Translations under genes and position numbers: made by a program
Source of the DNA: a bacterium
Lineage (GTDB): Bacteria > Patescibacteriota > Minisyncoccia > Phycocordibacterales > UBA918
Reading direction: 5' to 3'
Assembly (NCBI GenBank): GCA_043719295.1
Contig: JAYSUD010000012.1
Coordinates: 92,790 to 141,022 of the forward strand
Length of the DNA stretch: 48,233 nucleotides
The notes under the pieces: model-generated
Databases searched by the model: none
The model's input: the letters and a program-made list of their open reading frames with translations, nothing else
What the model was told of the DNA's origin: nothing
In this document: positions 12,121 to 28,280 of the stretch, one piece after another
Numbering within the stretch: position 1 is the stretch's first letter
Layout: each line of letters begins with the position of its first letter

Positions 12121-13390
12121 GTGACTGTACCTTAGCTTTGAGACCAGTCAGCTTCTCATAACGATTGATAATCAGGTCACAGAAGGCTGGTTCAAGTTCA
12201 CAACCATACACTCTTCGACCAAGAGCGTTTCCTGCGATTAAGGTGCTCCCTGAGCCAAGGAAGCTATCAAGAATGATGTCGTTCACTTTAGTGCAACGTT
12301 TAATGGCTTTTTCGTGCAGACATGGCGGTTTAGAAGTAGCGTGCTTGTAGTCCTTTGCCGCCATGCGTTTGGCTGTCCAAACATCAATAAAATTATCAAC
12401 TTCACTAAGGAGATTGTTACCAGTAGTGAGTTCTTTATTTAAGACTTCGTTCAAATTAGTAATTGGTTCTGCCAAATGTGGTTTACCACGAGTTCCATAC
12501 ACTACTGGCTCGTAGACCTTATTGAAGGCTACTCCGGGTACGGGATTATGATTATTCTTTAACCACAAGCATACCCGCCTATTACTGATTCCAAGTTGTC
12601 TGTATATTTCCTGTACCACACCAATAAATACTTGGTCGGACCAGTAGAAGACATGTGTGTCTTTAGTCGATACCGCCAAAGCCGATTCCATACTATCTTT
12701 CAGGAACTTTTGATACTCCTCAAAGGTGCGCTTATCTTTTACGTTGCCCCCATAATCCTGTTTACCTCCGATACCTCCGTTGTAGTCGATGTCGATGTTA
12801 TAGACGGGGTCGGAGTAAATCATCGTTGCTCTCTCCTTGCCGAGTAGTCGCTGTAGTGTTTCGGGCTTTGTGGAATCGCCACAGATGACTCGGTGCTTGC
12901 CAAGCGTGATGAGATCACCGAGTTTCGTTCTCGGTTCTACAATCTTTTTTAATTCCTTTTGTTCGTCAAAATTATCGTCGGCGACTTCCGTCTCTTTATC
13001 GTAGATATCTGACAATTCGATATTGTCGAAACCTGCGAACTCAAGTGCACCCATATCGAATCCTTTGAGTAGATCGAAATCCCAATCGCCACCAAGCTTG
13101 TTAGAGGCAATTAAGTACTCGTCTGATTCTTCTTTGGTCAGCTTACGATTGGGTACTCGAACATCAATAATTTCTTCACCACGACCAAGGAGCTGAAGCG
13201 CTTTGATTCGCTGGTGACCCGCGAGAATAGAGCCGTTAGCATCTATAGCTGGTATCTCTACTAAATTGTATTTCTTCAAGCTTCGCTTCAAGTCCGACAT
13301 TTGTTTGTCGGTAATTGAGCGAGGATTAACGTCTTGAGGAGTAAGATCGTCGATTCGTTTCTGGACCGTAGTCCAAGATAGTTTTTTCAT
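12107..13390 (-). CDS. ParB-like nuclease domain fused to N4/N6 DNA methyltransferase
   Basis: ParB motif ILAGHQRIKAL. MTase motifs IYSDPVYN (DPPY-like) and ILDSFLGSGSTLIAG (FxGxG). Start set at MKKLSW (13390); the longer ORF reaches 13432. Confidence 0.85.
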   Translation of the reverse strand: MKKLSWTTVQKRIDDLTPQDVNPRSITDKQMSDLKRSLKKYNLVEIPAIDANGSILAGHQRIKALQLLGRGEEIIDVRVPNRKLTKEESDEYLIASNKLGGDWDFDLLKGFDMGALEFAGFDNIELSDIYDKETEVADDNFDEQKELKKIVEPRTKLGDLITLGKHRVICGDSTKPETLQRLLGKERATMIYSDPVYNIDIDYNGGIGGKQDYGGNVKDKRTFEEYQKFLKDSMESALAVSTKDTHVFYWSDQVFIGVVQEIYRQLGISNRRVCLWLKNNHNPVPGVAFNKVYEPVVYGTRGKPHLAEPITNLNEVLNKELTTGNNLLSEVDNFIDVWTAKRMAAKDYKHATSKPPCLHEKAIKRCTKVNDIILDSFLGSGSTLIAGNALGRRVYGCELEPAFCDLIINRYEKLTGLKAKVQSHEEN

Positions 13391-13425
13391 GATACACACA
13401 AAATGACTTAATAATTTTGTCATTT

Positions 13426-13451
13426 CACGCACCTGTTACCGCAGGTGCGTG
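13426..13451. promoter_or_regulatory. Perfect 10-bp inverted repeat in divergent promoter region (candidate operator)
   Basis: CACGCACCTG ttaccg CAGGTGCGTG lies between the divergent genes 12107-13390 (-) and 13565-14656 (+). Confidence 0.4.
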
Positions 13452-13564
13452 TATCTTGTTAGCTCCTATTTGAAATATATAGTCTTCGTAGGAATGTACA
13501 AGATGGTCGAGTGTGTATAAAGTCAGAATCTTTTCAAATCTGAGAAAAGGTATAGCATTTAGCT

Positions 13565-14656
13565 ATGAGGCATCTGAAAGAACGACAGGACTATATAGAC
13601 CGTTTTGACCGCCACACTGTGGAGGAATGTAGGCGTATTGAAGCGTCTACTACTGCCGAAGATATCAAACGTATTGCCGAAAAAGATCCCCCGAAAGAAG
13701 AGATTAACTATCATGGCTTTGCGGATTATGTAAATAACATACACATTTGGTGTTATCAAGGAGAGCGATACAAAAACATAGACAAAACCATTAACGAATG
13801 GATGGAGCGTGACCGCAAGATGGACGCATGTTATGACACGGCAGTAGCCCCGAATGTTTCGTGCCTTAGTTGTCGGCAACCAGTTATTGAGACCTTCAAG
13901 AATTTGGATTGGGACTATGACAAAGACACCTGTCGAGTGTTGTTTATGTGCGACTGCAAAAACGGATGTCTGCCTCGTCGGGCATTTTATGATAATGGCG
14001 AAGAGTGGATCTCTCCGCCTCGCCTATGTGTAAAGTGCAAAACTCCAACTACGCACGAGACTGAGAAAACCGAGATCAAGATTATATGGACTGACACTTG
14101 TCCTAGTTGCGGTCACATTGAAAAAGACGAGATGGACCTACACTCAGAGCCTAAAGAGGAGAAACCTGATCCCAACTATGTTGCCGACCGAGACCGATTC
14201 TGTGATCCAATGAAGGGGCAAGACTATGTGAACTGGATGGCAAACGCAAAGGAAGTTTTTGAAATGTTAGAGAAGCATAAAGAGCGAGAAGCTAAGAAAG
14301 AAGTCTATGACAAGGTATCTGCTCTGACCAAACTCTCCATACCCTCAGTGAAAGACAGGCTTGAAGAAGTAATTAGAAAGACCACCTACCGCAGTCTTAA
14401 ATTCAAAGAGCCAGACCTTGCTCGTATTGTTTCCGTTGAATTAACCGTGGAGGATCCAACCGACAACAAGCAATATGACAGCGAAAAAGGACTCAAGAAA
14501 CTTATCCAGAAAGCTCTGGAAGAAACCAACTGGCGACTCATGAGTGACGGTATCAGCTATAGACTGGGTATCCTTTCGGGCAGAATAAGAGTTTATGAAG
14601 ATGAGGACGAACTAGCAAAACTAATGGAAAATAAGCTCCCTAAGCGCAACAATTAG
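13565..14656 (+). CDS. Hypothetical protein with two Cys4 Zn-ribbon-like clusters
   Basis: 363-aa ORF. CLSCRQ...CDCKNGC and CVKCKT...CPSCGH. No recognised catalytic motif. Confidence 0.65.
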   Translation: MRHLKERQDYIDRFDRHTVEECRRIEASTTAEDIKRIAEKDPPKEEINYHGFADYVNNIHIWCYQGERYKNIDKTINEWMERDRKMDACYDTAVAPNVSCLSCRQPVIETFKNLDWDYDKDTCRVLFMCDCKNGCLPRRAFYDNGEEWISPPRLCVKCKTPTTHETEKTEIKIIWTDTCPSCGHIEKDEMDLHSEPKEEKPDPNYVADRDRFCDPMKGQDYVNWMANAKEVFEMLEKHKEREAKKEVYDKVSALTKLSIPSVKDRLEEVIRKTTYRSLKFKEPDLARIVSVELTVEDPTDNKQYDSEKGLKKLIQKALEETNWRLMSDGISYRLGILSGRIRVYEDEDELAKLMENKLPKRNN

Positions 14657-14694
14657 ACATTCAGGTCCATGCCGGTATACTCGAATATAAGAAT

Positions 14695-16488
14695 ATGGCG
14701 GCAAAAAAGACTCAACTTAAACTTTATAAAATCGATAGAACTTTGTTTACTGGCACAGCAGTGTCTGTTATTCCTCATGAGATTATCAAGAAAGCAAATA
14801 CCGGCGTTACAGGGAAAAGAAAATTCGTTGAACAGGCACTGGATGATGATATAAAAATACCCACAGGTTTTACACTTGAGGTATATCACGCATTAAAAGA
14901 AGGTAGTCCAGGGTGGGTGTCTGCATGGACCGATGCTCTGAAAGATTCAGAATCAATGCTTCGTGAGAAAAATACAATGTCCTCGTTTATCGCTTTCATT
15001 GCTCGAGGAAATAATTTGTACGCACTTACCGGAGGACAAGGTAACTTTGCAATAAGTCACTATGTGGAAAATTTCTTTGGTTTAGATGTAGTTGATTATC
15101 TTATTGACTCAACTCAAGCACGAGGAATCAGTGGAGCCAGTAAAAGTGGAATGACCGGTATTGTAAAGACCGAGCAACGCACATTCTATGATTTAACCGA
15201 CGCCTTCAGTCAGGACTCTTTTGAGACATTTTTCCGAAATCTAAAGTCACAAATCGATTCAGCAGTAGTGAAAAAATATTTCTCTGAGTTTCACCCCAAC
15301 AAGGACTACGGCTCTTTTTTTCAAGGAGGAAATTACTTTCTGTTGCGTAAATCAATAGCGGTCACGAAGGTGTTTGATCTAATCGTGGCAATAGAGTTGG
15401 TGTTTGCTGAACGTAAGACAAGTGGTCACAATAAACTAATTCCGATTGGATCTGTTAACTCCGCTAACGCACAAGTTAAACATTTAAACGAAGCTTTGTT
15501 AAAAGAGATATTTGATAACCAAAACAACCTCGACGTTCTCGATAATTATTATTTTGCACCAAAAGCAATTCCTGGCGAAGAAATAGATGGGTCAATTTTT
15601 GGTATTGCAGAACGTCAAAGTCATATAGGAGCAAGCGCTACTTATCCTGAGCTGCCCAAACTAAGCCAATATATTGAGGTGCTTCTTAACATAGGAGGGA
15701 GACGGCGCTTATATAGAAATACCAAAGACCTAAGCGATGCAATGCGTAGCTATAAGATTTATTGGAAACACTATGATGACAGTACCTATGAAGCGGTGGA
15801 ATCTTTTCCTTCACTAAATGGGGTGCTTGAAAGTAAGGGAAAAAGTTACTTACGATTTGAAAATGCGTGGTATGAAATGCGTCAAAATTTCAACGACATC
15901 ATCAATGCTGAGTTCACGAGTCTTGTTACAACTCCCGCCAAAGTTAGTCCCGCTCCCGCCTATCTATCAGCTTGGACGGGAGGAGATGAAAACGTATACA
16001 ACTACGATTATCTGACGAATGCTGCAGTGATGGTTACCCATAAAGTCATTAAGCAAACAGCGGCAACTGGTCAAATGGATCGTTATATTGAATATGCTGA
16101 CTTGATTCATTTGGAAGCTGCCGATCCGAAGTTGATTCATGTTAAGAAATCCTGCAACGGCGATATGCGAATAGCCAGTGCCCAAGTTGCCATGTGTGCC
16201 CAAAAATTTAATTTGAGCAACAACAAAGAGGCCTTCTTGCGTGAATACTACCGTCTTATTATGGCGACGACAGCGACTTCTTCTCAGAATACAAAAATAT
16301 CTGAAGACGACTTTGTGCAGCTCGGACTTAAAGATGATATCAAAATTTGCCTTGTCATATCAGACCCGCGTGTACTTGCTGACGATTCGACACTTTCACT
16401 ATGTGGAAAATTCTATTTTGTAAAAATGTTTCGAGAAATGGCAGGACTAGGTTTCGGCACTGGACGCTTTTCTGTTTTGAACGTTTAA
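14695..16488 (+). CDS. Hypothetical 597-aa protein (size and N-terminus reminiscent of sporadically distributed TIGR04141/DUF6119-type proteins; unverified)
   Basis: Long uninterrupted ORF 38 nt after the preceding gene. I could confirm no motifs. Confidence 0.65.
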   Translation: MAAKKTQLKLYKIDRTLFTGTAVSVIPHEIIKKANTGVTGKRKFVEQALDDDIKIPTGFTLEVYHALKEGSPGWVSAWTDALKDSESMLREKNTMSSFIAFIARGNNLYALTGGQGNFAISHYVENFFGLDVVDYLIDSTQARGISGASKSGMTGIVKTEQRTFYDLTDAFSQDSFETFFRNLKSQIDSAVVKKYFSEFHPNKDYGSFFQGGNYFLLRKSIAVTKVFDLIVAIELVFAERKTSGHNKLIPIGSVNSANAQVKHLNEALLKEIFDNQNNLDVLDNYYFAPKAIPGEEIDGSIFGIAERQSHIGASATYPELPKLSQYIEVLLNIGGRRRLYRNTKDLSDAMRSYKIYWKHYDDSTYEAVESFPSLNGVLESKGKSYLRFENAWYEMRQNFNDIINAEFTSLVTTPAKVSPAPAYLSAWTGGDENVYNYDYLTNAAVMVTHKVIKQTAATGQMDRYIEYADLIHLEAADPKLIHVKKSCNGDMRIASAQVAMCAQKFNLSNNKEAFLREYYRLIMATTATSSQNTKISEDDFVQLGLKDDIKICLVISDPRVLADDSTLSLCGKFYFVKMFREMAGLGFGTGRFSVLNV

Positions 16489-16531
16489 TGTAGAAGTGTC
16501 ACTTTTGTCACTTTTTATATAAAGTAAATCT

Positions 16532-16822
16532 ATGTATACAAAAGCAACCACTACTTACGACCTGAATTGTGACGCCTGTAGGAAAAACATACCTGCAGAT
16601 ACTGACTATTATGACGACAGTGTTTACAACTCTTTGTATGCCAAGATTGATATTCAAAAAACCCTATGTTGGGATTGTGGTACGAAATATTGGGCGGAAA
16701 AGGAGCGCAGGTATCAAGAATATGAGCGAAGAGAGGGGCCGAAAAGATTCAAAAGATTGATTGGAATACTTCTCCTCCTCGGAGCATTTATCGTTTTGCT
16801 TTCACATGTTCATTTTGATTAA
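16532..16822 (+). CDS. Small Zn-ribbon protein with C-terminal TM helix
   Basis: CDACRK...CWDCG followed by LIGILLLLGAFIVLL. Confidence 0.55.
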   Translation: MYTKATTTYDLNCDACRKNIPADTDYYDDSVYNSLYAKIDIQKTLCWDCGTKYWAEKERRYQEYERREGPKRFKRLIGILLLLGAFIVLLSHVHFD

Positions 16823-16952
16823 GGCGCACGAGACGCTTCGAATTGACATCGCTAAGAAGTAGCGAATCCGCCAAGCCCTGCTTAACCGTCCACGGTTCTA
16901 GCCCGAGACGGCCCGCAAACATATTTTGTACAAATTGTTTGTACTCAATTTC

Positions 16953-16981
16953 TAAAAAAACCACCTCTTGGTGGTATTTTT
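16953..16981 (-). terminator. Rho-independent terminator of the Excalibur-domain gene
   Basis: aaaaaaACCACCtcttGGTGGTatttt. Read on the minus strand, the hairpin is followed by a 7-T run. Confidence 0.75.
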
Positions 16982-17004
16982 AGTTTACGTATTTTTTAAA
17001 ATTA

Positions 17005-17442
17005 CTATCGAGTGCCTTGTGGTAAGGATTCACACACTAAGCCGTCTTTATCTCCGTCAAGCCGAAATACATCCATGTTTTTACCAAGCTCTCCGCAACG
17101 TTTATATACAGACATTGCTTCTGGTTGTGTTTTAAAATCTGTACAGTTGTAGTCCATCTTTTCTGCATTACAGAAGTTATCAATATTAATGATATTGCCA
17201 GTAGCTGCGTCACGTTCAATCTTCGATTCTGCAAACGACTTTGTTTCTATAAGTTTTTGTACATCATAATCATTTTGTGTTGCCTCCATACCAAATGCAC
17301 CAACAAGGAGGGCAATAACAACACCCAAGATTACTTTTGCAGTAGTTCCCTTGATAAAAAAGAATAAGATTCCACAGAGTACAATAAGGCCTCCAATAAT
17401 CCAAAGCCGTGCTTTGTGTGATTCACGAATTTTTTTAAGCAT
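17005..17442 (-). CDS. Membrane-anchored Excalibur calcium-binding domain protein
   Basis: C-terminal CTDF...RLDGDKDGLVCESL matches the DxDxDGxxCE Excalibur motif. Two N-terminal TM helices. Confidence 0.8.
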   Translation of the reverse strand: MLKKIRESHKARLWIIGGLIVLCGILFFFIKGTTAKVILGVVIALLVGAFGMEATQNDYDVQKLIETKSFAESKIERDAATGNIINIDNFCNAEKMDYNCTDFKTQPEAMSVYKRCGELGKNMDVFRLDGDKDGLVCESLPQGTR

Positions 17443-17525
17443 ATACCTACTATAGTAGTATGCTCTACCACCACTTGTCTATTCCCGTACTCACCAATAG
17501 CTTGCCCCCATGATATAATTTTCCT

Positions 17526-17996
17526 ATGGCAGAACAGGTACGTGCAATTTTATGGGAGGCGTATGAACACCAGCATGCTCCAAAAGAGAGTGATTGGTTT
17601 TGGATTTTGGGTATTATGACCCTTTCAATATCCATGGCGTCAATTCTCCTTGGTAATCCCCTTTTTGGTATCTTAACCTTTATTGGAGGACTCGTGGTTG
17701 CGATACTCGCAACCCGTGATCCTAAAATTGTTTCCTATGCAGTTACGCAACGTGGACTACAGATCGAAGATCGAATGTACCCCTACACTACGTTAGAATG
17801 TTTTTGTATAGACGAAGAAGCAGTCTCAGGACCTCAGTTGTTGGTAAAATCAACAAAACTATTCATGCCGTTACTGGTACTTCCCCTTCCGTTAGATACC
17901 ATGGAAGAAATTGAGGACCTTATTGCGCAACGTCTCCCTGAAGAACACATTGAGGAACCCTTCGCCCACAAACTCCTTGAATTTTTCGGCTTTTAA
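17526..17996 (+). CDS. Small membrane protein, unknown function (its 3' end is the target of the adjacent insertion)
   Basis: 156 aa with two TM helices (WFWILGIMTLSISMASILL, GILTFIGGLVVAILA). The C-terminal coding sequence is duplicated at 22112-22161. Confidence 0.7.
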   Translation: MAEQVRAILWEAYEHQHAPKESDWFWILGIMTLSISMASILLGNPLFGILTFIGGLVVAILATRDPKIVSYAVTQRGLQIEDRMYPYTTLECFCIDEEAVSGPQLLVKSTKLFMPLLVLPLPLDTMEEIEDLIAQRLPEEHIEEPFAHKLLEFFGF

Positions 17997-18001
17997 GCTA
18001 T
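17952..18001 (+). repeat. Direct repeat, left copy (attL-like), 50 nt with 2 mismatches to 22112-22161
   Basis: gaGgaacccTtcgcccacaaactccttgaatttttcggcttttaagctat versus gaAgaacccCtcgcccacaaactccttgaatttttcggcttttaagctat. Confidence 0.9.
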
Positions 18002-18006
18002 CAAGT

Positions 18007-18396
18007 ATGGAGAAGGATTTTAATAAGTGGAATACTAAGAAATCTTTAGTTAATAATACCCACAAAACACCTTTCTTTCATGAGCGTGAAATTTGGTTTT
18101 GTTTTCTTGGTGCAAACATCGGATTTGAGCAAGACGGCCGAGGTGACGATTTCCAGAGACCTGTGTTAATACTTAAAAAGTTTAATAATGAAATCTGCTG
18201 GGCAATTCCGCTTTCAAAGACAAGTCGGCGTGGAAAGTATTATTTTGCTTTTCAGTTTAATACCACGACAACAAGTGTTGCAATCCTGTCTCAAATTAAA
18301 CTGATTGATGCCCATCGACTTAGTAGAAAAATTGGAGACATAGATGAAACTAATTTCAAAAGTGTTATAGAAAAACTCAAGGCATTGTTGCCTTGA
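18007..18396 (+). CDS. PemK/MazF-like toxin family protein
   Basis: MEKDFNKWNTKK...REIWFCFLGANIGFEQDG...FQRPVLILKKFNN...AILSQIKLIDAHRL fits the MazF/PemK SH3-like barrel pattern (RPvlIl strand). Start trimmed to ATG 18007. Confidence 0.6.
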   Translation: MEKDFNKWNTKKSLVNNTHKTPFFHEREIWFCFLGANIGFEQDGRGDDFQRPVLILKKFNNEICWAIPLSKTSRRGKYYFAFQFNTTTTSVAILSQIKLIDAHRLSRKIGDIDETNFKSVIEKLKALLP

Positions 18397-18524
18397 GTTT
18401 TTCTTGTTCCTCTGCCTTGCGACAGAGTCGGGCCGAAGCCATTTGTTCATTCAGTATATTCTATCACCACAAAAAGTCAATATTTGAAACATAACTTATA
18501 ATGGAATATCTATAATATAACTAT

Positions 18525-18848
18525 ATGGCATTTTCTTTTTCACATCTGATTATTTATGAGTCAGACCGAATGACCTGTGAGAGCGCTTTTAGGCTAGTTA
18601 ACGAAGACCTTCCACAGGCTACGAAGCGGGGTACAGCTTCTTGTGTTGGAAAAATTGAAAGCTTTGACATATGGCTCGGTTTCAAGAAAGGAATACCTTC
18701 GTGGAAATGTTCCTGTACAAAGACCTTGTATGCAGAATCGAGTAATCCTTGCGTTCATGCAATTGCCTTAGCTATTTCGTGGGACAGAAATCGAGGCGTC
18801 CCTGACCCTTCAGATGAAGACATTGAGTTTCTTACGAAGAAGCATTGA
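18525..18848 (+). CDS. SWIM zinc-finger protein
   Basis: WKCSCTKTLYAESSNPCVHAIAL is a CxC...CxH SWIM signature. Converges on the helicase gene and overlaps it by 17 nt. Confidence 0.7.
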   Translation: MAFSFSHLIIYESDRMTCESAFRLVNEDLPQATKRGTASCVGKIESFDIWLGFKKGIPSWKCSCTKTLYAESSNPCVHAIALAISWDRNRGVPDPSDEDIEFLTKKH

Positions 18849-20961
18849 GACCGAACTCTTTTTCATATAGTCGCTGCCTCTTTTTGTAGTGCCTTTCCAG
18901 AAATGCAATCTGTGAATCATGGATATCAACGATATATTTCACTCCATTGCCTCGCAACCTTCCGATATATTGCTTGAGTTTTCCTTCAAATGAAATTGGA
19001 AAAGCGAGAACCAGTACATCAAATCCTTTGACATCTAGACCCTCTCCGAAGAGAGGTCCCGTTGCAATGAGGACTTTAAAATTACCCGCCGTTATCTGGT
19101 CATATTTCAATTTCCGCTGTCTGGCAGAATCGTCACCAGATAAAGTTATAATTTCAGCCACCTCACGCAGATGCAGTGCCAGTATTTCTATATGTTCCCT
19201 TCGCTCCGTTAGCAATAATATCTTTCGGTTTTGTCTTAGGTGGTCAAGCACTGCGTCAATAATAACCCTATTCCGTGCTGTGTCGAATGATATTGTCTTC
19301 GCTAGAATTTCATAATGATCGTTTTTATATCGAAAGGGCAGTTCCAAAAGAGAGGGAATAATCATAATGTTAAACGTTCCTGATTCCGCTCCCTGCGATG
19401 ACTTCATTTCTGCCAGTACTGGTCCTATGCAAAGTTCAGCAATGAGCTGTTGGTCAAACTTTCGCTCGTGAGTGGCAGTAAGTCCGTAACAGTATCTACT
19501 GTTAAATGAACGAATTGTCTCACGATATGTTTTTGCAGGAATATGGTGGCATTCGTCGATGACCATAACCCCAAACACATTTCTGATTTCATCAAAATTC
19601 TTATATCGAGCAAGACTCTGTAGTGACGCAACCGTAATTTGTTTACCCAGTTTCTTTTTCGTCCCCGAAATGACTCCGATATGAGCTTTCGGGATTCCAA
19701 GAAATTGCTCAATTCGTTCAACCCACTGATGAAGAAGTTGATTGCGATGAACAAGAATAATTGAAGGTAATGTAAGTCGAGTAATAATTTCAAGAGCCAT
19801 TATCGTTTTACCGCTCCCCGGTGGAGCGACGAGAATACCATTTGGCTTTTTAAGCACTTGGGTGACTACAATTTCCTGCTCCGCTTTCAACTCAATCAAG
19901 TTTGAAAAAGAAACATCGTCAAACTCACGTTTTGTTTGTGTGAACGTATAAGAGATATTATTTTCATCTAGAAATTCAGCGAACTGTGACAAAAATCCTC
20001 GAGGCAGAATAACCTTGTCGCTTACTTCCTCAATGAGGTGGAAATATCTCTCGGTGCTGAAGGTCGATTTCCCTAAACGCTTTTTCATCCCATATTCTTT
20101 GTTAAAAATGTTCAAATTTTCCTTAATAAAGTTTATGACGGGTTTTGAGAGTTCATTTCTGTTTAGGATAATGTTCCCGCCAACAGAAATATGAATGCCC
20201 GACACAGGACTAGCCCCACCCTGTATCGTAGCGCCTAAACATATTTTTTCATATGCGCTATCAAGATCAGAAACTGAGTGTCTATGAACATTTCTTAAAA
20301 ACTTCCATTGATCTGGGTAAATATCGTCGGCTTTTGTATCGTAAAACACCGTGCATTTTTCCATTACTCTTTGACCTTGTAGCGGAGCACCAATCAGATT
20401 ACCAAACCCACCATCTGAAACGGTGTCCTGATTTGGAAATAAACGATCAAAACTATCTTCTTTCTGAAATTCTGAATGCGGTGATATTCTTGCTATTAAG
20501 GTAAGCATAATTTCCCGAGATTTCCAGCAAGGGTATGCCCCGGCAAAAAATACCCATACGTGTACACCATTACCTCCCCGTGAGATTTCTGTATACGCCA
20601 ACAGACCATTCTCGGAGCACGTATCTACCAGATTTCTTGCGTCATCTTTCCATGAAGTCTCATCAAAATCAGCGACTATGAAATAGGATGTGTTATCTGG
20701 AAGTATCGGATATATCCCAATTGTTTCTTTGCCTGTAAGATGTCCTTCTATCACTCCATGAGTAAATGGCATGAGTGTCTTGTTCTTAAAGTCCTTAATG
20801 GTACCTCCGTGAGCTCTGTGTGCATTAAATTCGTCCCAGTCGAAAGCATACGCAGGCGACCATCCGCTTTTTGTATCTTTTTCCCATCTCCGTGCATATA
20901 CGTCATCACGACCTCTGAAAAGCGATTTGTACAAACCAATCTGTTCTGGAGTCATGCTCAT
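18832..20961 (-). CDS. Archaeo-eukaryotic primase (prim-pol) domain fused to SF2 DEAD/DEAH-box helicase
   Basis: AEP motifs LFRGRDDVYARRW, VADFDETSW (DxD) and GGNGVHVWVFF (sxH). Helicase motifs VAPPGSGKT, VIDECHHIPA and TGPLFGEGLDV. The architecture resembles AEP-helicase proteins annotated in conflict/defence systems. Confidence 0.8.
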   Translation of the reverse strand: MSMTPEQIGLYKSLFRGRDDVYARRWEKDTKSGWSPAYAFDWDEFNAHRAHGGTIKDFKNKTLMPFTHGVIEGHLTGKETIGIYPILPDNTSYFIVADFDETSWKDDARNLVDTCSENGLLAYTEISRGGNGVHVWVFFAGAYPCWKSREIMLTLIARISPHSEFQKEDSFDRLFPNQDTVSDGGFGNLIGAPLQGQRVMEKCTVFYDTKADDIYPDQWKFLRNVHRHSVSDLDSAYEKICLGATIQGGASPVSGIHISVGGNIILNRNELSKPVINFIKENLNIFNKEYGMKKRLGKSTFSTERYFHLIEEVSDKVILPRGFLSQFAEFLDENNISYTFTQTKREFDDVSFSNLIELKAEQEIVVTQVLKKPNGILVAPPGSGKTIMALEIITRLTLPSIILVHRNQLLHQWVERIEQFLGIPKAHIGVISGTKKKLGKQITVASLQSLARYKNFDEIRNVFGVMVIDECHHIPAKTYRETIRSFNSRYCYGLTATHERKFDQQLIAELCIGPVLAEMKSSQGAESGTFNIMIIPSLLELPFRYKNDHYEILAKTISFDTARNRVIIDAVLDHLRQNRKILLLTERREHIEILALHLREVAEIITLSGDDSARQRKLKYDQITAGNFKVLIATGPLFGEGLDVKGFDVLVLAFPISFEGKLKQYIGRLRGNGVKYIVDIHDSQIAFLERHYKKRQRLYEKEFGLNASS

Positions 20962-20972
20962 AAACCACTCAA

Positions 20973-22025
20973 TTATATTCTCCTATATCGAGTCGTCCTA
21001 CCTTGTCCAATACGCTCTATCTTTTTGAGTCGAAGCAGTGTGTCTATTGCCTGAGATACAGTTGGACGGGCGACACCAGTTACTTTTGCAATCAGACCTG
21101 GCGTTGCTTCTTCCGTAGTCAACAGATACTGCCACACGAGCAACTGCTTCGGTGAGAGGAGCTTTTCAATACTTTCTTTTGATATGAGCGCAAGCGCTTC
21201 TTTTGCCTGAGTCAATGAAACATATAAAAAAAATTCAAGCCATGGAGATACATCTTCAGACTCTGTGCCGAATGTTTTCTGACTCTTACGAAGTACAACA
21301 TAATACTCTGCCTTGTTATCTTCAATCAATTTTTCGTGTGAAACGTACGGTACATAATCATATCCAAGCTGGAGCATGAGCAAATTTGTAAGTATGCGAC
21401 TCATTCTGCCATTTCCATCTTGGAAGGGGTGAATCTTAAGAAATTCGACAATAAAATTAGCAATTACTATGAGTGTATGGATTTTCTTCTGTGTAATTGC
21501 TTTTTGTGTCCACTCTATTAATTCCTGCATTTCTTTTCCTGTAAGCCATGCTGGCGTTGTGGCAAATACGACTGCAACTGACGCACCTGTATCGTCCAGT
21601 ATTTCTACTTGATTCTCAACTTTTTTATAGCTACCTCGGTGGAGGCTATCTTTGTCTACATACTTGAGAAGCTCTCGGTGAAGATGTTGGATACTACTTT
21701 CAGAAAAAGAAATTTTTGTATACGCAGTAAATACATTTTCAAGAAGTTCGTAGTACCCCTGCACCTCCTGTTTATCTCTATCTTTAAACTTTTGCATGGA
21801 GAGTCCACGCATCAGTTTTTCAACATCTTCATCAGTCAGTTTCGCTCCCTCAATACGAGTAGACGCACCCGTAGAGGTGACAAGGACTGATTTCTTCAGT
21901 CGTCCTAATATCTGTGGATTAAGTAATGCTCCTCCTACAAATCGACCCTTGAGTTCATCGATCTGACTCACAAGTACCCAAAGATTTTGTGGTATATTTT
22001 TAACTCGTTTATCGAAGCGATTCAT
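20973..22025 (-). CDS. Fic/DOC family protein with N-terminal inhibitory motif and C-terminal winged HTH
   Basis: Active site HPFQDGNGRMSR. STRIEG matches the (S/T)xxxE(G/N) auto-inhibition helix. C-terminal ...ATPGLIAKVTGVARPTVSQAIDTLLRLKKIER is wHTH-like. Confidence 0.85.
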   Translation of the reverse strand: MNRFDKRVKNIPQNLWVLVSQIDELKGRFVGGALLNPQILGRLKKSVLVTSTGASTRIEGAKLTDEDVEKLMRGLSMQKFKDRDKQEVQGYYELLENVFTAYTKISFSESSIQHLHRELLKYVDKDSLHRGSYKKVENQVEILDDTGASVAVVFATTPAWLTGKEMQELIEWTQKAITQKKIHTLIVIANFIVEFLKIHPFQDGNGRMSRILTNLLMLQLGYDYVPYVSHEKLIEDNKAEYYVVLRKSQKTFGTESEDVSPWLEFFLYVSLTQAKEALALISKESIEKLLSPKQLLVWQYLLTTEEATPGLIAKVTGVARPTVSQAIDTLLRLKKIERIGQGRTTRYRRI

Positions 22026-22111
22026 AATATTTAATCTACTATGGATGATATATGAGATTATATTAGATTATACACTTTATAGCAAGCATGTGTACTTATA
22101 CTGAACATATC

Positions 22112-22161
22112 GAAGAACCCCTCGCCCACAAACTCCTTGAATTTTTCGGCTTTTAAGCTAT
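22112..22161 (+). repeat. Direct repeat, right copy (attR-like)
   Basis: See 17952-18001. Confidence 0.9.
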
Positions 22162-22209
22162 GCTGTTGCCACTAAAGGTACATAAGGGGACTTTAGTAAT
22201 TTAATACTC

Positions 22210-22281
22210 GCTCTCATAGTTTAATGGATAGAATGTCAGTTTGCGGAATTGACGATCCAGGTTCGATCCCTGGTGAGAGCA
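22210..22281 (+). tRNA. tRNA-Arg (anticodon GCG by hand folding), no encoded CCA
   Basis: Acceptor GCTCTCA/TGAGAGC, D loop AATGGATA, anticodon stem TCAGT/ATTGA with loop TTGCGGA, T arm CCAGG-TTCGATC-CCTGG. The isotype rests on my choice of anticodon-stem register. Confidence 0.7.
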
Positions 22282-22287
22282 CAAAAA

Positions 22288-22318
22288 TAAAAAGTCCCTT
22301 CGTGGACTTTTTATTTTT
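22288..22318 (+). terminator. Rho-independent terminator after tRNA-Arg
   Basis: AAAGTCC cttcgt GGACTTT followed by ttatttttgg. Confidence 0.7.
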
Positions 22319-22435
22319 GGGTTCTCACCAGTTGCAGGATTTTGATGAAAAAACCGTCGCAAGGATCGAAGAGGTTGCCAACTATTTCTTGAGGTAACGA
22401 AAAGAAATGGTGACAACCTGTACTGAACTCGTAGA

Positions 22436-22459
22436 GTTCGATCCCTGGTGAGAGCACAA
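22436..22459 (+). repeat. 24-nt exact duplicate of the tRNA-Arg 3' end (22261-22284)
   Basis: gttcgatccctggtgagagcacaa occurs twice, 175 nt apart. A more degenerate third copy (gattccctggtggca) lies at 22576-22590. Confidence 0.85.
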
Positions 22460-22604
22460 CGAACGAACACAGAACAGTCTGGGAGACTGTTCGTCAGGGA
22501 TCGAAACACAATTGAGCTAGTTTGTGAGTGAAACGAGACAAACTAGCCAATTGGGGTACCGTTCATGTAATTAAAGATTCCCTGGTGGCATTACCTGTAT
22601 CTCA

Positions 22605-23096
22605 CTATTGCAATTCTACTAGCTCTCCATTTGTATCTGACATATGAATATACAATGGTTGTGAACATAAAATCTCAATAACTCCAGTTTCTTGGTTTTG
22701 AGCTGTGACTTGCAATACATGTTTCCCTGGTCGTGATGTTGCGACACCTCTTGGAAAATTAAAAGTTGCATAATATCTATTCATTTCTTTTGGAATGACT
22801 ACATCCAGTTTCATATCTTCCATCACTATGTTGCCTTCTGGATCAATAAAATTGATGGCACAATTGAGGCTTACTTCATATCTAGTATCAGTCATAAATG
22901 GTGATCTATCGAAGATTAAAACCAGATCAAGTGGGGCCTTAATCCAACGCAACGTAGTACCAATACTTTCACTCTCTTCTGGAGAAATAGTTACGCCAAG
23001 GGTCGAAATAATATTTATAAATGAAAGGAAGCCCGTCTCCTTTTCCACTTGAGTTTTTTGACAAATTAACCCACAACAAGATATTTTCTGATTCAT
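22605..23096 (-). CDS. Hypothetical protein (163 aa)
   Basis: ORF lying 3 nt downstream of the adenylating-enzyme gene. No motif recognised. Confidence 0.6.
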   Translation of the reverse strand: MNQKISCCGLICQKTQVEKETGFLSFINIISTLGVTISPEESESIGTTLRWIKAPLDLVLIFDRSPFMTDTRYEVSLNCAINFIDPEGNIVMEDMKLDVVIPKEMNRYYATFNFPRGVATSRPGKHVLQVTAQNQETGVIEILCSQPLYIHMSDTNGELVELQ

Positions 23097-23099
23097 ATT

Positions 23100-24404
23100 T
23101 TAACTAGTTACTGCAGTTTGATTAGACTCATCAATATATACTAGCGTTTTACCTCTTCCCATTCTCGGTATTGACTCAAGAAACACCATATGGATGTTAA
23201 TTGTATTGCCTAAAATTTTCTTCATACACGACAACAAATCCTCAGTCATAAAATCAAAATATAAATTATTTTTCACTATTCGAACCTCTAGTTCGTGTTC
23301 ACTCTTCTTTACTATCTGGTATTGCACAATAGCTTCAGCATGTTCTGCAAAAAGACTATTGAGATCAAAGTGGCTTAACATTTTTTCTCCGAACATTACA
23401 AAACGATTCCTGCCGTGTAGCGAAAATCTAATATATGGACCTCTTTTTTCGTGTAGAATTGCAAGGTCTCCAAGTTCATATCGAATAAACGGTTGGGTAT
23501 AGTTAAGTAAATCTGTCACAAGCACTCTTCCTGTCTGTCCTACCTGTACACTTTTATTTTCATCATCTACAATCTCAATTATAAACGTCTCTGCACACGA
23601 GACAAGTCCTTGGCTTCCTGGTTCTTCAGCTCCAATTGTTGCAAACTCAGCTGTACCATAGCGATTATAGACTTTGCCTCCTAGGACACGTTCAATATAC
23701 TGCACTTGACCATCAAGTAATGCCTCACCACTATTAATAATATATGGGATTTTAATTTTTCCAGTATATCCATACTGTTCAACATAGTGACAAAATTCTA
23801 GAGTTGAAGTTGCATAACATCCAAAAATATGAGGTTCCAATTTTATTACTTTTTCAACAATTTCTTTAGATTCTGAACGCAAATTCGCGTAGTCAATAAA
23901 TAAATGTCTGCCTTCCGCATCTTCAATCCTGGTCGGTTCAAGAATGTCGGGTCTGCGGATTTCAGCTATTCGCAGTTTGTTTTGAATCTCTGACACTGAA
24001 TGACCTGCTTTTATAATCGAGCGAAATATATGAAAATACATGTACGATAACTGCAAATCAGGAAATTCAGTATCATACGCAGAATTATAAAAACGAACAG
24101 GCTCGCCTGTTGTGCCTGAAGTACCACCTTTACTTCGTCCGTACATCCATTTTGGTAAATGGTGATTTACCATGTCAAACCCATCTTCTCTAAGATTTTG
24201 CCGAGTTACAATAGGGAGTTTTTCAAAAGAAGATAATTCAAGAGACTCACCTTCAAAGACTTTTTTATAGTAGGAAGTATTAGCTCGTGCATAGTGCAAA
24301 AGTTTTTGAAGCTTTCTTTTTTGCAAGAAAAACAAAAGGGTATCTGGAAAATAAATACTTCTTGTTATCCAAAAAAAATCTAATTCGTCTTTAAGAAAAA
24401 GCAT
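23100..24404 (-). CDS. PaaK/CapK/F390-synthetase-like adenylate-forming enzyme
   Basis: GGTSGTTGEPVRF (the TSGTTGxP AMP-binding loop of phenylacetate-CoA-ligase-like enzymes) and a C-terminal RMGRGK lysine motif. Confidence 0.75.
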   Translation of the reverse strand: MLFLKDELDFFWITRSIYFPDTLLFFLQKRKLQKLLHYARANTSYYKKVFEGESLELSSFEKLPIVTRQNLREDGFDMVNHHLPKWMYGRSKGGTSGTTGEPVRFYNSAYDTEFPDLQLSYMYFHIFRSIIKAGHSVSEIQNKLRIAEIRRPDILEPTRIEDAEGRHLFIDYANLRSESKEIVEKVIKLEPHIFGCYATSTLEFCHYVEQYGYTGKIKIPYIINSGEALLDGQVQYIERVLGGKVYNRYGTAEFATIGAEEPGSQGLVSCAETFIIEIVDDENKSVQVGQTGRVLVTDLLNYTQPFIRYELGDLAILHEKRGPYIRFSLHGRNRFVMFGEKMLSHFDLNSLFAEHAEAIVQYQIVKKSEHELEVRIVKNNLYFDFMTEDLLSCMKKILGNTINIHMVFLESIPRMGRGKTLVYIDESNQTAVTS

Positions 24405-26301: not shown

Positions 26302-27984
26302 TTATTGTGCTTTATTGTGTACCACTACTCCGTTTACGAGATAGTTTGCAGGGCCTTGCTTCATATGTAGGTTGTATACATCAACATATTCTTGTTCATA
26401 TGAGTTTGTGCCATCTATAACAACTTCTGAACTAACAATACTTCCAAGACCATCGTGCAATAGTACAGAGTCACCAATAGCAAACAAACCAATTTCTTTG
26501 TATGACTTTGAAACTGGATCAAAGTATGGGTGATTACTTGTCACAAACGTTTCTACACTATGTTGCTGCCCATCAATAATAGAAACTTTTAGGAGTGGGT
26601 AATCTCCGAAATTAGCAGGATTATGAAGTTGCGAATGGACAATTAATTCACCAACAACCGATGTTACAAAGCTATTTGTATTTTGATCATAAGATACAAC
26701 GGTATCCCCTTCTTTAATACTTGCAATGGCAACCTCACCATTTAAAGTTGTAACTAATTGATCTGCAGTGAAGCATGAGTAACTACTTTGTGAATATGAC
26801 CTATAGCTACTTTGTGAATAAGTAGATCTATAGCTACTTTGGCTATAGTAACCACCTTGGCTATAGTAACCACCTTGAGAATAGTAACCACCTTGGCTAT
26901 AATACCCACCTTGAGAATAGTAACTACTTTGTGAATAGTACCTACTTTGACTATATCCTTTGCCAGCATAACTACTTTGAGTATAGTACCCACCTTGACC
27001 ATAGTAACTACTTTGGCTATACGATTTACCCCCATAACTACTTTGAGAGTATGTAGTTCTGTAACTACTTTGGCTGTAGTAACTACTTTGGCTGTAGTAA
27101 CTACTTTGGCTGTATGCTTTACCTCCATAGCTACTTTGCGAGTATGTTCTGTAGCTACTTTGGCTATATGTAGGGGTTGAAGGAACTCCATACGCATCCT
27201 TAACAGATTGTGGAAGATCTTGAACATTATTGAATGGATGTGTAGTACCATTAGAATCTGTATACGTTCCAGTACCTGAGGTATGAACAACAATATTTCC
27301 TCCATTATTACACTCATACACTACTATTCCAGATGGGAGCGTTAGACCAGATGAGGTATAACTACTTTGGGTATATCCAGGGGTATAACTACTTTGGGTA
27401 TATCCAGGGGCATAAGAACTTTGACTGTATCCTGGTGCGTAGCTTGATTGAGAGTAGGCTGGACCATAACTTGACTGAACGTATCCAGGTCCAGTGTAAG
27501 AACTTTGACTATATCCTGGGACATAACTACTTTGAGAGTATCCTGGTGCGTAACTACTCTGACTGTACCCTGGAGCGTAGCTTGATTGAGAGTAGGCTGG
27601 GCCACCGTAAGAACTCTGACTGTAAGCAGGTCCATAGCTTGATTGAGAATATGGCGCAGGAACGTCAGCATATACAGTCTTAATAAATACAACCTGACCT
27701 ATCATTGAACGTAAGTCGAAATTATTAATTTTGGAGTACACATGAATTCCTGCTAATGCAAAAACCAAAATTGTCGCAACAACAGGCAATGACTTATTCT
27801 TTAGAAAAAAACTACTTCTGGAGCTTTCCACATTAAACAATGGGGACAATATTTCAGCATTAGTTGTAATTTCTGAACTAATTACATCAAACGACTTCAA
27901 TTCATTTTCATTATTATAAATGAATGTAGTGTCGTGTTTTTTTACACTCGAACTGTTCGCACTTAAGATAGCGTCTTTTCCCAT
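26302..27984 (-). CDS. Membrane-anchored Tyr/Ser/Gln/Gly-repeat protein ending in a C-terminal Hint (bacterial intein-like) domain
   Basis: TM helix at about aa 66-84. About 11 copies of Y(S/T/V)QSSY plus xPG (aa 112-212), a 60-aa non-repeat insert, then about 20 more YSQSSY/YSQGGY units (aa 273-403). The Hint domain follows: Cys404 (CFTADQLV), block B TSNHP, and VYNLHM..GPANYLVNGVVVHN-KAQ-stop. Confidence 0.85.
   Translation of the reverse strand: MGKDAILSANSSSVKKHDTTFIYNNENELKSFDVISSEITTNAEILSPLFNVESSRSSFFLKNKSLPVVATILVFALAGIHVYSKINNFDLRSMIGQVVFIKTVYADVPAPYSQSSYGPAYSQSSYGGPAYSQSSYAPGYSQSSYAPGYSQSSYVPGYSQSSYTGPGYVQSSYGPAYSQSSYAPGYSQSSYAPGYTQSSYTPGYTQSSYTSSGLTLPSGIVVYECNNGGNIVVHTSGTGTYTDSNGTTHPFNNVQDLPQSVKDAYGVPSTPTYSQSSYRTYSQSSYGGKAYSQSSYYSQSSYYSQSSYRTTYSQSSYGGKSYSQSSYYGQGGYYTQSSYAGKGYSQSRYYSQSSYYSQGGYYSQGGYYSQGGYYSQGGYYSQSSYRSTYSQSSYRSYSQSSYSCFTADQLVTTLNGEVAIASIKEGDTVVSYDQNTNSFVTSVVGELIVHSQLHNPANFGDYPLLKVSIIDGQQHSVETFVTSNHPYFDPVSKSYKEIGLFAIGDSVLLHDGLGSIVSSEVVIDGTNSYEQEYVDVYNLHMKQGPANYLVNGVVVHNKAQ
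26776..27651 (-). repeat. In-frame degenerate tandem coding repeats (18-30 nt units) encoding YSQSSY-type units, split by a unique segment at 27169-27348
   Basis: Recurrent gtaactactttggctgtagtaactactttg... on the plus strand. It produces long shadow ORFs in several frames. Confidence 0.85.
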
Positions 27985-28280
27985 ATAGTACTATTAGTAT
28001 AATACACATTTATTAAAAATAATGTGCCCCTGTGCACAAATATCTCTACCATCTAGCCCATTTTACTTTTTAATAAAGTTTTAAAAGATCAAATCTTGAA
28101 GTGTGCTAAATTTTTCTTAACATTCCTAAAATAATTACTCCAGTGCAGTTGAATTAAAGCCTGTTTGAAAGCTCTCAAACAAAAAAACTTTCAAATAACA
28201 AAATAATATAGCCATCCATTTACTTACTAATGCTTTAACATACTGTCTTTTGAATACCGGAATTAGCCATAAATGCACAT

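Follow-up and report, generated by a model that had tools for sequence, protein, structure and literature searches.

A recombinase-less conflict-gene island at the 3′ end of a Patescibacteria gene, an atypical member of a repeat-bracketed Fic/PrimPol-helicase module family

Genes of the island

In a Patescibacteria genome, of which a stretch of 48,233 nucleotides was analysed (the window), a 4,160-bp segment (18002–22161 or, equivalently, 17943–22102) is inserted between the gene of a putative membrane protein and tRNA-Arg(GCG). The upstream gene (17526–17996, plus strand) encodes 156 aa and belongs to a conserved Paceibacteria family. Its product has no Pfam or NCBIfam match, and the membrane assignment is suggested by two hydrophobic stretches seen by eye. 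The protein has 164 homologues, the closest being 92–94% identical, among which the C-terminus EEP[FL]AHKLLEFFGF is conserved. tRNA-Arg(GCG) (22210–22282, plus strand) is the downstream neighbour of this gene in the ancestral order: the two lie 17–264 nt apart in 30 of 35 Paceibacteria loci, in the same orientation in 26. Exact-sequence look-ups returned no record identical to the target protein or to the helicase of the island.

Four genes of conflict type fill the inserted interval, and domain searches bear out the identities given to them by the first-pass annotation (PemK/MazF, SWIM, AEP with helicase, Fic). None of the four encodes a recombinase and the four largest alternative-frame ORFs have no Pfam match, in agreement with the same annotation. 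The first gene (18007–18396, plus strand) encodes a solo MazF/PemK-like protein of 129 aa (PF02452, E 3.8e-10). It starts 5 nt after the left of the two repeats that bound the island, with 10 nt between the upstream stop and its own start. Homologues number more than 1200 and are 65–80% identical in many Patescibacteria. The protein shares the PemK/MazF fold of type II MazEF toxins but, unlike these, has no adjacent antitoxin: no antitoxin gene was found beside it here, where the next gene is SWIM, nor in the other contexts examined. The same solo layout occurs in loci L172–L178, and solo homologues occur in unrelated contexts. This type of MazF travels with a conserved, hairpin-rich non-coding 3′ tail (18397–18446, plus strand), which also follows the homologues in L172 and in L173–L178; an inverted repeat (18369–18384/18389–18404) spans the gene end and the tail. 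No repeats were found around the solo MazF units.

The second gene (18525–18848, plus strand) encodes a SWIM zinc-finger protein of 107 aa (PF04434) and is the first gene of a recurrent module. It is convergent with the helicase gene, with a 17-nt overlap at the helicase gene end. Its product is 74% identical in locus L004, and the gene is frameshifted in L006–L012.

The third gene (18832–20961, minus strand) encodes a 709-aa fusion of a CAPP-like PrimPol (AEP) and an XPB/Rad25-like SF2 helicase (PF22548, E 7.2e-76, plus ResIII/DEAD/Helicase_C). The protein matches PADLOC PrimPol (8e-67) and, among PDB entries, 7nqd with its AEP part (1e-11) and XPB with its helicase part. The catalytic motifs are intact: among 20 homologues D98, D100, H134, the GSGKT Walker A motif and D469 and C471–H473 of the DECHH motif are invariant, and E470 is nearly so. 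Replicative primase-helicases usually contain SF3, SF4 or MCM helicases, whereas the helicase here is SF2 and XPB-like. Partners of the helicase family elsewhere include DUF6119, DUF3800 and LSR (by Pfam) and others that are AbiE-like by eye; full-length homologues, 32–35% identical, occur as lone accessory genes on large proteobacterial plasmids. Of the conflict- or replication-type cargo first proposed, the conflict type stands. With its changing partners the AEP-helicase resembles a conflict-system protein more than a dedicated replicase, although a homologue is encoded on one apparently circular 4.2-kb contig. A phage or plasmid vehicle was rejected: IMG/VR and the GenBank phages give only helicase-domain matches (23–27%), and the plasmid homologues are lone accessory genes.

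The AEP domain falls into the Pfam AEP-TOTE family and resembles CRISPR-associated PrimPol (CAPP, PDB 7nqd), which recalls TOTE conflict systems (TPR, OB, TBP, Effector; Aravind et al., 2022, as cited in bioRxiv 10.1101/2025.09.15.676423). In contrast to these, its partners in the island are Fic and SWIM. TPR-CSD, OB, TBP and cas genes were found neither in the island nor among the ORFs scanned up to 10 kb to its left and right, and cas families are absent among the 50 window ORFs scanned. The TPR proteins of the window, at 38285 and 44525, lie more than 16 kb from the island. TOTE membership is therefore rejected: although the AEP is of the TOTE clade, there are no TPR, OB or TBP genes.

The fourth gene (20973–22025, minus strand) encodes a class-II-type Fic protein of 350 aa with a C-terminal winged helix (PF02661), matching PADLOC SoFic (E 1.8e-41) and PDB 8uqu (E 1.5e-30). 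Its translation contains the Fic motif HPFQDGNGRMSR and, towards the N-terminus, STRIEG, a motif of the inhibitory type. Together with the SoFic match, both motifs are shared with SoFic and the class II Fic AMP-transferases. The protein nevertheless falls below the NCBIfam SoFic cut-off, and SoFic is a single-gene candidate, whereas Fic here always occurs with the PrimPol-helicase. The Fic gene sits directly upstream of the helicase gene on the same strand and the two probably form an operon. This pairing holds in the closest relatives, where Fic lies 9–20 nt upstream on the same strand, and the gap is 8–56 nt in most other Fic-bearing loci. A promoter-like region (22057–22094, minus strand; TTGCTA-17-TATAAT and TACACA-16-TATAAT) precedes the pair, and sequence conservation among module copies ends within it, at 22086–22087.

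The direct repeat and the empty site

A repeat search of the window returns a 59-nt direct repeat (17943–18001 and 22103–22161) with a spacing of 4160 and 93% identity. The left, attL-like copy consists of the last 18 codons and stop of the target gene plus 5 nt beyond, and regenerates the 3′ end of this gene. The right, attR-like copy is a non-coding pseudo-copy of the gene end; its reading frame is kept and, as originally described, it still encodes the gene end and stop, translating as EHIEEPLAHKLLEFFGF-stop. All four mismatches fall within the first 19 nt (three synonymous and one F→L, a variant also present in natural orthologues), and the last 41 nt, TTCGCCCACAAACTCCTTGAATTTTTCGGCTTTTAAGCTAT, are identical. 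In 100 dinucleotide shuffles of 16500–23500, in which direct repeats of at least 90% identity were counted, the longest was 20 nt; the 59-nt repeat is therefore not due to chance. The repeat first reported, a 50-nt stretch holding two of the four mismatches, is thus real and longer than stated. As to transposon features, there is no inverted repeat at the island ends and no transposase, and the repeat is long (59 nt) and imperfect. Neither conserved junction motifs nor terminal inverted repeats were found at the window island, and no Rfam family matches the element ends.

The empty site named by the first-pass annotation, in which the target gene is directly followed by tRNA-Arg, exists: three related metagenome contigs (L001, L002 and L003) have the gene, a short spacer and the tRNA, with no island. 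The segment is therefore a true insertion. The closest hosts, in which the core protein is 92–94% identical, lack the module. No second occupied copy of the target-gene/tRNA-Arg site was found among 70 surveyed loci.

The repeat was first understood as a 3′ gene end. The target gene end is indeed regenerated, but by our reading the 59-mer also holds the putative −35 element, the spacer and half of the −10 element of the tRNA-Arg promoter. About 20 orthologous loci share this promoter-like pattern in aligned sequences read by eye; the promoter scan made no call at this position, where 8 of 12 matches fall below its threshold. We infer that the right copy still supplies −35, spacer and −10 to tRNA-Arg. 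Because the 59 bp would comprise both the ORF end and this promoter, only an insertion that duplicates them would spare both functions.

The clustering of the mismatches might be read as a trace of a crossover, and this was rejected. L001 and L002, which have no island, contain exactly the same 41-nt core, and L003 differs from it at one position; the core is identical even in relatives that are only 82% identical overall. Because the core is equally conserved in island-free relatives, the pattern proves neither a crossover nor a foreign origin of the right copy. Judged by outgroup comparison, an old duplication in situ would fit it too.

A recurring module family

The part of the island from 18504 to 22087 recurs elsewhere with 78–83% nucleotide identity over 3.3–3.6 kb, in copies that adjoin tRNA-Arg(GCG), tRNA-Arg(TCT), tRNA-Gly and tRNA-Lys. 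Its presence at different sites in different genomes shows that this core is mobile over evolutionary time. In locus L010 a module copy lies just downstream of the same tRNA-Arg; its Fic and helicase are 89% and 81% identical to those of the window while the flanking core protein is only 51% identical, which demonstrates horizontal transfer of the module. The insertion and the mobility of the core are supported, but the island is a composite rather than one element: the MazF unit and the SWIM/PrimPol-helicase/Fic module travel separately. A literature search found no description of this Fic/PrimPol-helicase element family. With thousands of homologues, the Fic-PrimPol-helicase combination is a putative defence candidate.

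Of 20 testable loci, 11 have the Fic+helicase unit between target-derived repeats, as against 1 of 183 control window pairs. The compact unit, with a repeat spacing of 3.5–3.9 kb, is found in at least 10 other loci, and no recombinase gene lies inside the repeat-bounded units examined. Its targets comprise at least 10 tRNA identities and two protein genes. A distant Fic+helicase homologue, for example, follows ddl, and its 62-nt repeat is made up of the last 62 nt of that gene. The long repeats measure 57–82 nt, a clustering seen at eight unrelated targets, and none is perfect, as expected if the two copies began as different alleles.

The window shares the topology of the family: the intact target lies on the side of SWIM and the helicase, the pseudo-copy on that of Fic. 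Compared with the local target, the copy beside Fic has the look of a foreign, element-borne sequence. In L004 it matches the 3′ end of the window tRNA-Arg in 23 of 24 positions and that of its own tRNA in 19 of 24. In L090, L107 and L131 the Fic-side copies are 3′ ends of pseudo-tRNA-Ser with one shared, conserved trailer behind them; the copies of L090 and L131 are closely alike. One 4.2–4.3 kb contig with a distant helicase homologue (L119) has a 127-nt terminal overlap, which suggests that it is circular.

The closest relatives define a canonical tRNA-end element (L004, L168, L170, L006, L010 and L085), with a conserved left end of about 157 nt directly after the tRNA 3′ end and a sub-terminal unit of about 45 nt on the Fic side. 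A sequence model of these ends, R1, scores 102–127 bits in the relatives and 44 bits in L085. In the window it finds no match at E≤5, so that the window copy was rejected as a canonical tRNA-end element. In gene content (SWIM/helicase/Fic with the conserved Fic promoter region) the copy conforms to the canonical set. The window copy is an atypical family member, without the conserved ends of its closest relatives.

A separate, repeat-flanked mini-insert of 175 nt at the 3′ end of tRNA-Arg resembles a mini-insert in L004. It was rejected as a deleted canonical element, model R1 having no match.

Routes of insertion

We consider the island, with a confidence balanced about evenly between belief and doubt, to be a non-autonomous integrative conflict cassette that entered by one crossover between an element-borne target copy and the chromosome, with the enzyme acting in trans. 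The cassette joins the solo MazF-like unit to the SWIM, PrimPol/XPB-like helicase and Fic module, which spreads horizontally among Patescibacteria and usually settles at a tRNA 3′ end and occasionally at a protein-gene 3′ end, between imperfect direct repeats derived from the local target. A copy in circular form, or able to circularise, would carry its own, slightly different 59-bp target copy, with the Fic promoter to one side of it and MazF/SWIM to the other. A single reciprocal crossover of the Campbell type with the chromosomal copy would give attL and attR, and the reverse reaction would excise the element. For the catalyst, which would act in trans, our slight preference is for homologous recombination by the host following DNA uptake, ahead of a resident site-specific recombinase. 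One sequence-specific recombinase would hardly account for closely related modules at no fewer than five different targets. In L004 the crossover would have to fall within the last 5 nt of the tRNA or past them, a short stretch for homologous recombination. The absence of any other occupied copy of the site in the 70 loci and of the conserved ends in the window copy also count against this reading; given its missing ends, that copy may have arrived by a different, one-off route.

Known derivatives of integrative elements that lack a recombinase include the streptococcal CIMEs and the ccr-less pseudo-SCC elements at the 3′ end of rlmH/orfX. Like these, the island occupies the 3′ end of a conserved gene between repeats that regenerate the gene end, carries no recombinase inside, and lies in a region that has a serine recombinase elsewhere, CcrB-like though below the family cut-off. 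It differs in its repeat (59 bp as against about 15–30 bp), in the range of targets used by related modules, in its Patescibacteria host and in its PrimPol-helicase/Fic cargo. [quoted passage not shown] In contrast, the units described here span 3.5–4.2 kb, hold two to four genes and have no integrase.

An alternative that we hold to be unlikely is a single event of illegitimate recombination, with or without facilitation by homology, once foreign DNA had been taken up; it would have left an island that is no longer mobile. The conserved gene would have anchored one end, and the other end would have been joined at random, 59 nt upstream of the anchor end, the duplication surviving only because it kept both the ORF end and the tRNA-Arg promoter. 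With both functions in the repeat, selection alone could explain why the duplication was retained. The lack of canonical ends in the window copy, its unrelated extra MazF unit, the absence of any other occupied copy of the site in the 70 loci, and the lack of terminal inverted repeats and of conserved junction motifs are all consistent with such an event. The same topology, however, recurs with repeats of about 60 nt at unrelated targets including another protein gene, and is improbable as a series of independent accidents. The target gene has a uniform identity of 72–88% to L001 and L003, with no mosaic break, a comparison that speaks formally against the one-off event and is itself uninformative.

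The first-pass annotation had pointed to a serine recombinase 7 kb from the island as a possible source of mobilisation in trans. This large, CcrB-like enzyme (9462–10784, minus strand; Resolvase, Recombinase and Zn_ribbon_recom domains) belongs to a neighbouring tRNA-Ser island and is the only recombinase among the window ORFs scanned; CcrB is its best NCBIfam match, at 113 bits against a cut-off of 900. If it mobilised the island, the latter would be a ccr-less, SCC-like passenger of the neighbouring island, a proposal that we find distinctly unlikely. Homologues of the recombinase, 55–57% identical, are neighbours of AEP-helicases in three loci (L090, L101 and L111). That of L111 stands in the place of Fic, directly upstream of the helicase and beside tRNA-Ser, and that of L090 lies just outside the repeat-bracketed Fic+helicase unit. 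Recombinase matches occur in 7 of 83 helicase loci; among L001–L082 they are confined to the helicase loci L010 and L011, with none in the 70 loci that were selected by the membrane-protein gene. The sites of large serine recombinases are short, with a 2-bp crossover, and these enzymes are not known to need or create 59-bp repeats, which speaks against the proposal. So do the recombinase-bearing unit of L111, which has no long repeat, and the many different targets of related modules. The ends of the recombinase island share with each other only a match of 11–21 nt, with a score inside the shuffle range, and by eye do not resemble the 59-mer.

Improbable, in our estimate, is a self-mobilising element of a new kind, in which the PrimPol/XPB-helicase, possibly with Fic and SWIM, would insert the unit at the 3′ ends of tRNA and protein genes without a recombinase or transposase. 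Gap filling across widely staggered breaks would then create target duplications of about 60 bp; in variants of this scheme, the unit would copy itself into such breaks, perhaps with the help of Fic-mediated nucleotidylation, or integration might use a short carried homology tag. The repeat-bounded units examined do lack a recombinase gene, repeat lengths keep to 57–82 nt at eight unrelated targets, a polymerase-primase and helicase with intact motifs is encoded, and L119 appears circular. Every long repeat is imperfect, however, and in L004, L090, L107 and L131 the distal copy is foreign or element-borne rather than a copy of the local target. The window copy moreover lacks the conserved termini, and the helicase family also occurs with other partners and alone on large plasmids, as conflict-system proteins do. 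Decay of a larger integrase-carrying island or satellite that lost its recombination module, the second option of the first-pass annotation, is very improbable: imperfect repeats, the frameshifted SWIM of some relatives and the repeat-flanked mini-insert at tRNA-Arg would fit it, but four intact genes with intact catalytic motifs fill the interval, and the same compact, repeat-bracketed unit without recombinase in at least 10 independent loci is unlike random decay.

The genomes of Patescibacteria (CPR) are tiny, and few of their mobile elements have been described. Across about 90 related loci, a compact conflict cassette (Fic, a CAPP-like PrimPol/XPB-like helicase and often SWIM) moves from lineage to lineage and inserts at the 3′ ends of genes, flanked by long repeats that derive from the target, carrying no recombinase. 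The present locus offers an experimentally tractable attL/attR pair, as well as a protein gene whose end would harbour a tRNA promoter. If the element supplied its own insertion chemistry, this would be a new transposition mechanism. If instead the repeats serve as homology tags for host recombination, or for a resident serine recombinase, they would provide a simple and general route for the spread of defence genes; the homology-tag route, if true, would suit naturally competent, reduced genomes.

The repeat pair and its target gene

The island lies between two direct copies of a 59-nt sequence (17943-18001 and 22103-22161, spacing 4160 nt), somewhat longer than the 50 nt reported in the first-pass annotation. 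Across 100 dinucleotide shuffles of 16500-23500, searched for direct repeats at ≥90% identity, the maximum was 20 nt. The repeat consists of the last 18 codons and stop of ORF 17526-17996, a 156-aa putative membrane protein, plus 5 nt past the stop. The two copies differ at four positions (three synonymous, one F to L), all within the first 19 nt, and agree throughout the last 41 nt. The second copy does still code for the gene end, as had been claimed, reading EHIEEPLAHKLLEFFGF-stop, and tRNA-Arg(GCG) starts 48 nt past it. The reported lack of a recombinase between the copies also holds. The interval is filled by four genes: MazF/PemK-like (18007-18396, +), SWIM (18525-18848, +), a fusion of an AEP-TOTE primase domain with an SF2 helicase (18832-20961, −) and a Fic protein carrying a winged helix at its C-terminus (20973-22025, −). 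In the alternative frames, none of the four largest ORFs gave a Pfam match.

The nearest homologues of the target protein (92-94% identical) are on three metagenome contigs, L001-L003. The empty site that the first-pass annotation had proposed to look for is present there: the same spacer and then tRNA-Arg come straight after the target gene, without the island, and the single 59-mer aligns with both window copies. In 35 genome loci encoding the target family, tRNA-Arg(GCG) lies on the same strand, 17-251 nt downstream, in 26 and is nearby but inverted in 4; a second copy of the gene end was seen in none. Because L001-L003 are unoccupied and adjacency to tRNA-Arg is general, with no second gene end in the 35 loci, the empty arrangement is ancestral and the island an insertion.

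Alignment of the gene ends of about 20 orthologous loci reveals a conserved TTGAAT/CTGGAA inside Leu-Glu-Phe codons and, right past the stop and at promoter spacing, a TGnTAnnnT-like element (TGTATGAT, TGTAGAAT, GCTATGCT). The tRNA-Arg(GCG) promoter appears to be embedded in the ORF end, its -35 falling within Leu-Glu-Phe codons and an extended -10 directly following the stop; a consensus promoter scanner did not call it there. The pattern is conserved across many Paceibacteria (window 17960-22170; loci L016-L039). The right boundary of the repeat lies within the putative -10 element. Because the repeat holds both the ORF end and this candidate promoter, duplication would keep both functions. 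Although the target genes of L001-L003 are only ~82% identical to that of the window overall, L001 and L002 match the 41-nt core exactly and L003 differs at one position; the apparent promoter would account for this nucleotide-level conservation. Mismatch clustering was rejected as evidence of a crossover, since the core is also conserved in these relatives.

A composite island and its mobile module

The island is a composite of a MazF unit and a separate module. The MazF gene and ~50 nt of hairpin-rich sequence behind it (18397-18446) recur jointly in unrelated contexts (L172, L173-L178), where neither an antitoxin gene nor a flanking repeat was found. The module (18504-22087) comprises SWIM, PrimPol-helicase and Fic together with the promoter region of Fic, and sequence conservation ends at the -35 element of that promoter. 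In the nearest relatives of the window copy, a conserved left end of ~157 nt begins exactly at the tRNA 3' end, and a sub-terminal unit of ~45 nt is common to the Fic side. A sequence model of the left end matches all relatives and nothing in the window, where the conserved promoter and the repeat are just 16 nt apart on the Fic side. The window copy is thus atypical: its module was transplanted with the customary ends missing and linked to a MazF unit, and its repeat comes from a different target. The SWIM gene is intact in the window and L004; in several of L006-L012 it matches in two frames (e.g., L010 5638-5957), reflecting a frameshift or sequencing error.

At 78-83% nucleotide identity, the module adjoins tRNA-Arg(GCG) in L004, tRNA-Arg(TCT) in L168/L169, tRNA-Gly in L170 and tRNA-Lys in L006-L009, and in L010-L012 it lies downstream of the same tRNA-Arg that trails the 156-aa gene. 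Fic and helicase are far more alike between window and L010 (89 and 81% identical) than the flanking core protein (51%), and the hosts nearest to the window lack the module, which indicates its horizontal transfer. In L168, the acceptor stem of the tRNA-Arg(TCT) (4360-4431) next to the module contains a U6-G67 wobble. This tRNA and the tRNA-Arg(GCG) of L004 have identical 3' halves, so the element may have contributed the L168 3' end.

The AEP domain is like that of CRISPR-associated PrimPol (PDB 7nqd, E 1e-11; PADLOC PrimPol, E 8e-67) and the helicase part resembles XPB/Rad25. Across 20 homologues, the catalytic Asp and His, Walker A and the DECHH box show no or almost no variation. The Fic protein has a canonical HPFQDGNGRMSR motif, an inhibitory-type STRIEG motif and a PADLOC SoFic match. 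More distant helicase homologues have other upstream partners, including DUF6119/TIGR04141, DUF3800 and serine recombinase (Pfam), some AbiE-like in appearance (translations, by eye). Homologues are also lone accessory genes on large plasmids; full-length ones were never found in phages. We infer a cargo role in defence or conflict rather than element replication. A DUF6119/TIGR04141 protein lies directly upstream of the PrimPol-helicase homologue in L104 (1839-3332) and the family recurs in the window's recombinase island (14695-16488), which suggests that helicase partners are interchangeable. Elsewhere in the window, two pretoxin-HINT proteins (26302-27984 and 29462-30304) adjoin a YcaO cyclodehydratase and a nitroreductase-family gene (30351-32578); this region (26302-32578) could be a polymorphic-toxin cluster with a RiPP-like cluster.

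Bracketing repeats across the family

A further survey covered 80 metagenome loci (helicase identity 43-73%). About two dozen have Fic immediately upstream of the helicase. At least 12 of these also have a convergent tRNA gene 90-220 nt from the helicase end, with 8 amino-acid identities represented (10 with closer relatives included). In a systematic test, significant direct repeats bracket 11 of 20 testable Fic+helicase units, compared with 1 of 183 control window pairs of the same geometry; bracketing repeats are a hallmark of the family. The window repeat (59 nt) spans a gene end and putative tRNA-Arg promoter, and that of L089 (62 nt, 95%; 6630-6691 and 10135-10196) corresponds to the final 62 nt, stop included, of a D-Ala-D-Ala ligase gene. 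Others measure 63 nt (L084, L137), 57 nt (L128), 82 nt (L085), 40 nt (L010) and 33+ nt (L131), as well as 75 nt in L107, where Fic is not adjacent to the helicase and which lies outside the systematic test. The repeats of L168 (26 nt) and L090 (18 nt) are perfect; none of the long ones is. The L089 Fic and PrimPol-helicase unit, inserted after the ligase gene, represents a second protein-gene target, in the opposite orientation to its target from the window's.

The Fic-side copy of L004 matches the window tRNA-Arg 3' end at 23/24 positions vs. 19/24 for its own tRNA. In L090, L107 and L131 the Fic-side copy is a pseudo-tRNA-Ser 3' end with one and the same conserved trailer behind it, and the L090 and L131 copies are closely similar. 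The foreign-like L004 copy and the shared trailer argue that the distal copy belongs to the element, attP-like, and is not duplicated from the local target. The window is arranged in the same way: the intact target flanks SWIM and the helicase, and the Fic side has a pseudo-copy that keeps the frame and carries a Leu variant, as in many natural orthologues.

Downstream of tRNA-Arg in the window, an exact 24-nt copy of its 3' end, from T-loop to acceptor end (22261-22284 and 22436-22459, 175 nt apart), encloses a 151-nt mini-insert. L004 (367-545) and L006 (8567-8756) have comparable mini-inserts (155-162 nt) between tRNA 3'-end copies, and motifs such as TACTGnnCTCGTAGAG are common to those of the window and L004. 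These inserts, which the canonical element-end model does not match, are possibly miniature or relic integrative elements.

Routes of integration

The best fit, at roughly even odds, is a non-autonomous cassette that would have integrated by a single reciprocal crossover between an element-borne target copy and the chromosomal copy, with the enzyme supplied in trans. Host homologous recombination after DNA uptake is slightly favoured over a trans recombinase, because closely related modules use at least 5 different targets, which is hard to reconcile with one sequence-specific enzyme, and the long repeats (57-82 nt) fall in the RecA-usable range. L004 speaks for a site-specific enzyme, since its crossover must lie in or past the last 5 nt of the tRNA. 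The first-pass annotation, which had read the island as a site-specific insertion mobilised in trans or as a decayed satellite-like element, is borne out in its observation and supported only in part in its interpretation.

A one-off illegitimate event kept by selection is improbable. Somewhat less probable is mobilisation in trans by the nearby large serine recombinase (9462-10784). It is the only recombinase among the window ORFs scanned (best NCBIfam match CcrB, under cut-off), and homologues lie beside helicase genes in L090, L101 and L111; however, large serine recombinases are not known to require or generate 59-bp repeats, and the recombinase-bearing L111 unit has no long repeat. A self-encoded insertion mechanism is more doubtful still, and decay of a larger element is very unlikely. 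Across the family, the repeat-bounded unit contains no recombinase gene in any locus examined; recombinase homologues are nearby in seven (L010, L090, L101, L102, L103, L111, L137).

The serine recombinase belongs to a second, larger island (1727-16919), extending from tRNA-Ser(TGA) to where L001 synteny resumes (16919), with a type I restriction-modification system (2573-9173), the DUF6119/TIGR04141 protein, a T5orf172 protein, an HTH protein and an N4/N6 methylase. A short repeat, GCACGAGACGC, of borderline significance lies near both ends (1825-1835, 16826-16836). A full-length Rfam LOOT RNA (10926-11058, +; 70 bits vs. gathering score 46) lies ~140 nt from the recombinase start codon, on the opposite strand.

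The ends of the 4.3-kb metagenome contig L119 (1-4335) overlap exactly over 127 nt, which implies a 4.2-kb circle. Its genes are a helicase homologue (47% identical), a DUF3800 gene and one further ORF. The contig, possibly a small replicon or an excised element, hints at circular forms in the wider family.

Among known systems, the island is most like recombinase-less derivatives of integrative elements, such as CIMEs and the ccr-less pseudo-SCC elements found at the rlmH 3' end. It differs from integrative elements in having no integrase of its own, shows no transposon feature and is not linked to cas genes. It also lacks the TPR, OB and TBP genes by which TOTE systems are defined (bioRxiv 10.1101/2025.09.15.676423), and AEP-carrying integrated elements described earlier have integrases (PMC5862659). 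A literature search found no description of a Fic/PrimPol-helicase cassette family. This is probably a non-autonomous, repeat-bracketed island, whose significance comes mainly from the family-wide pattern that it exposes in Patescibacteria.
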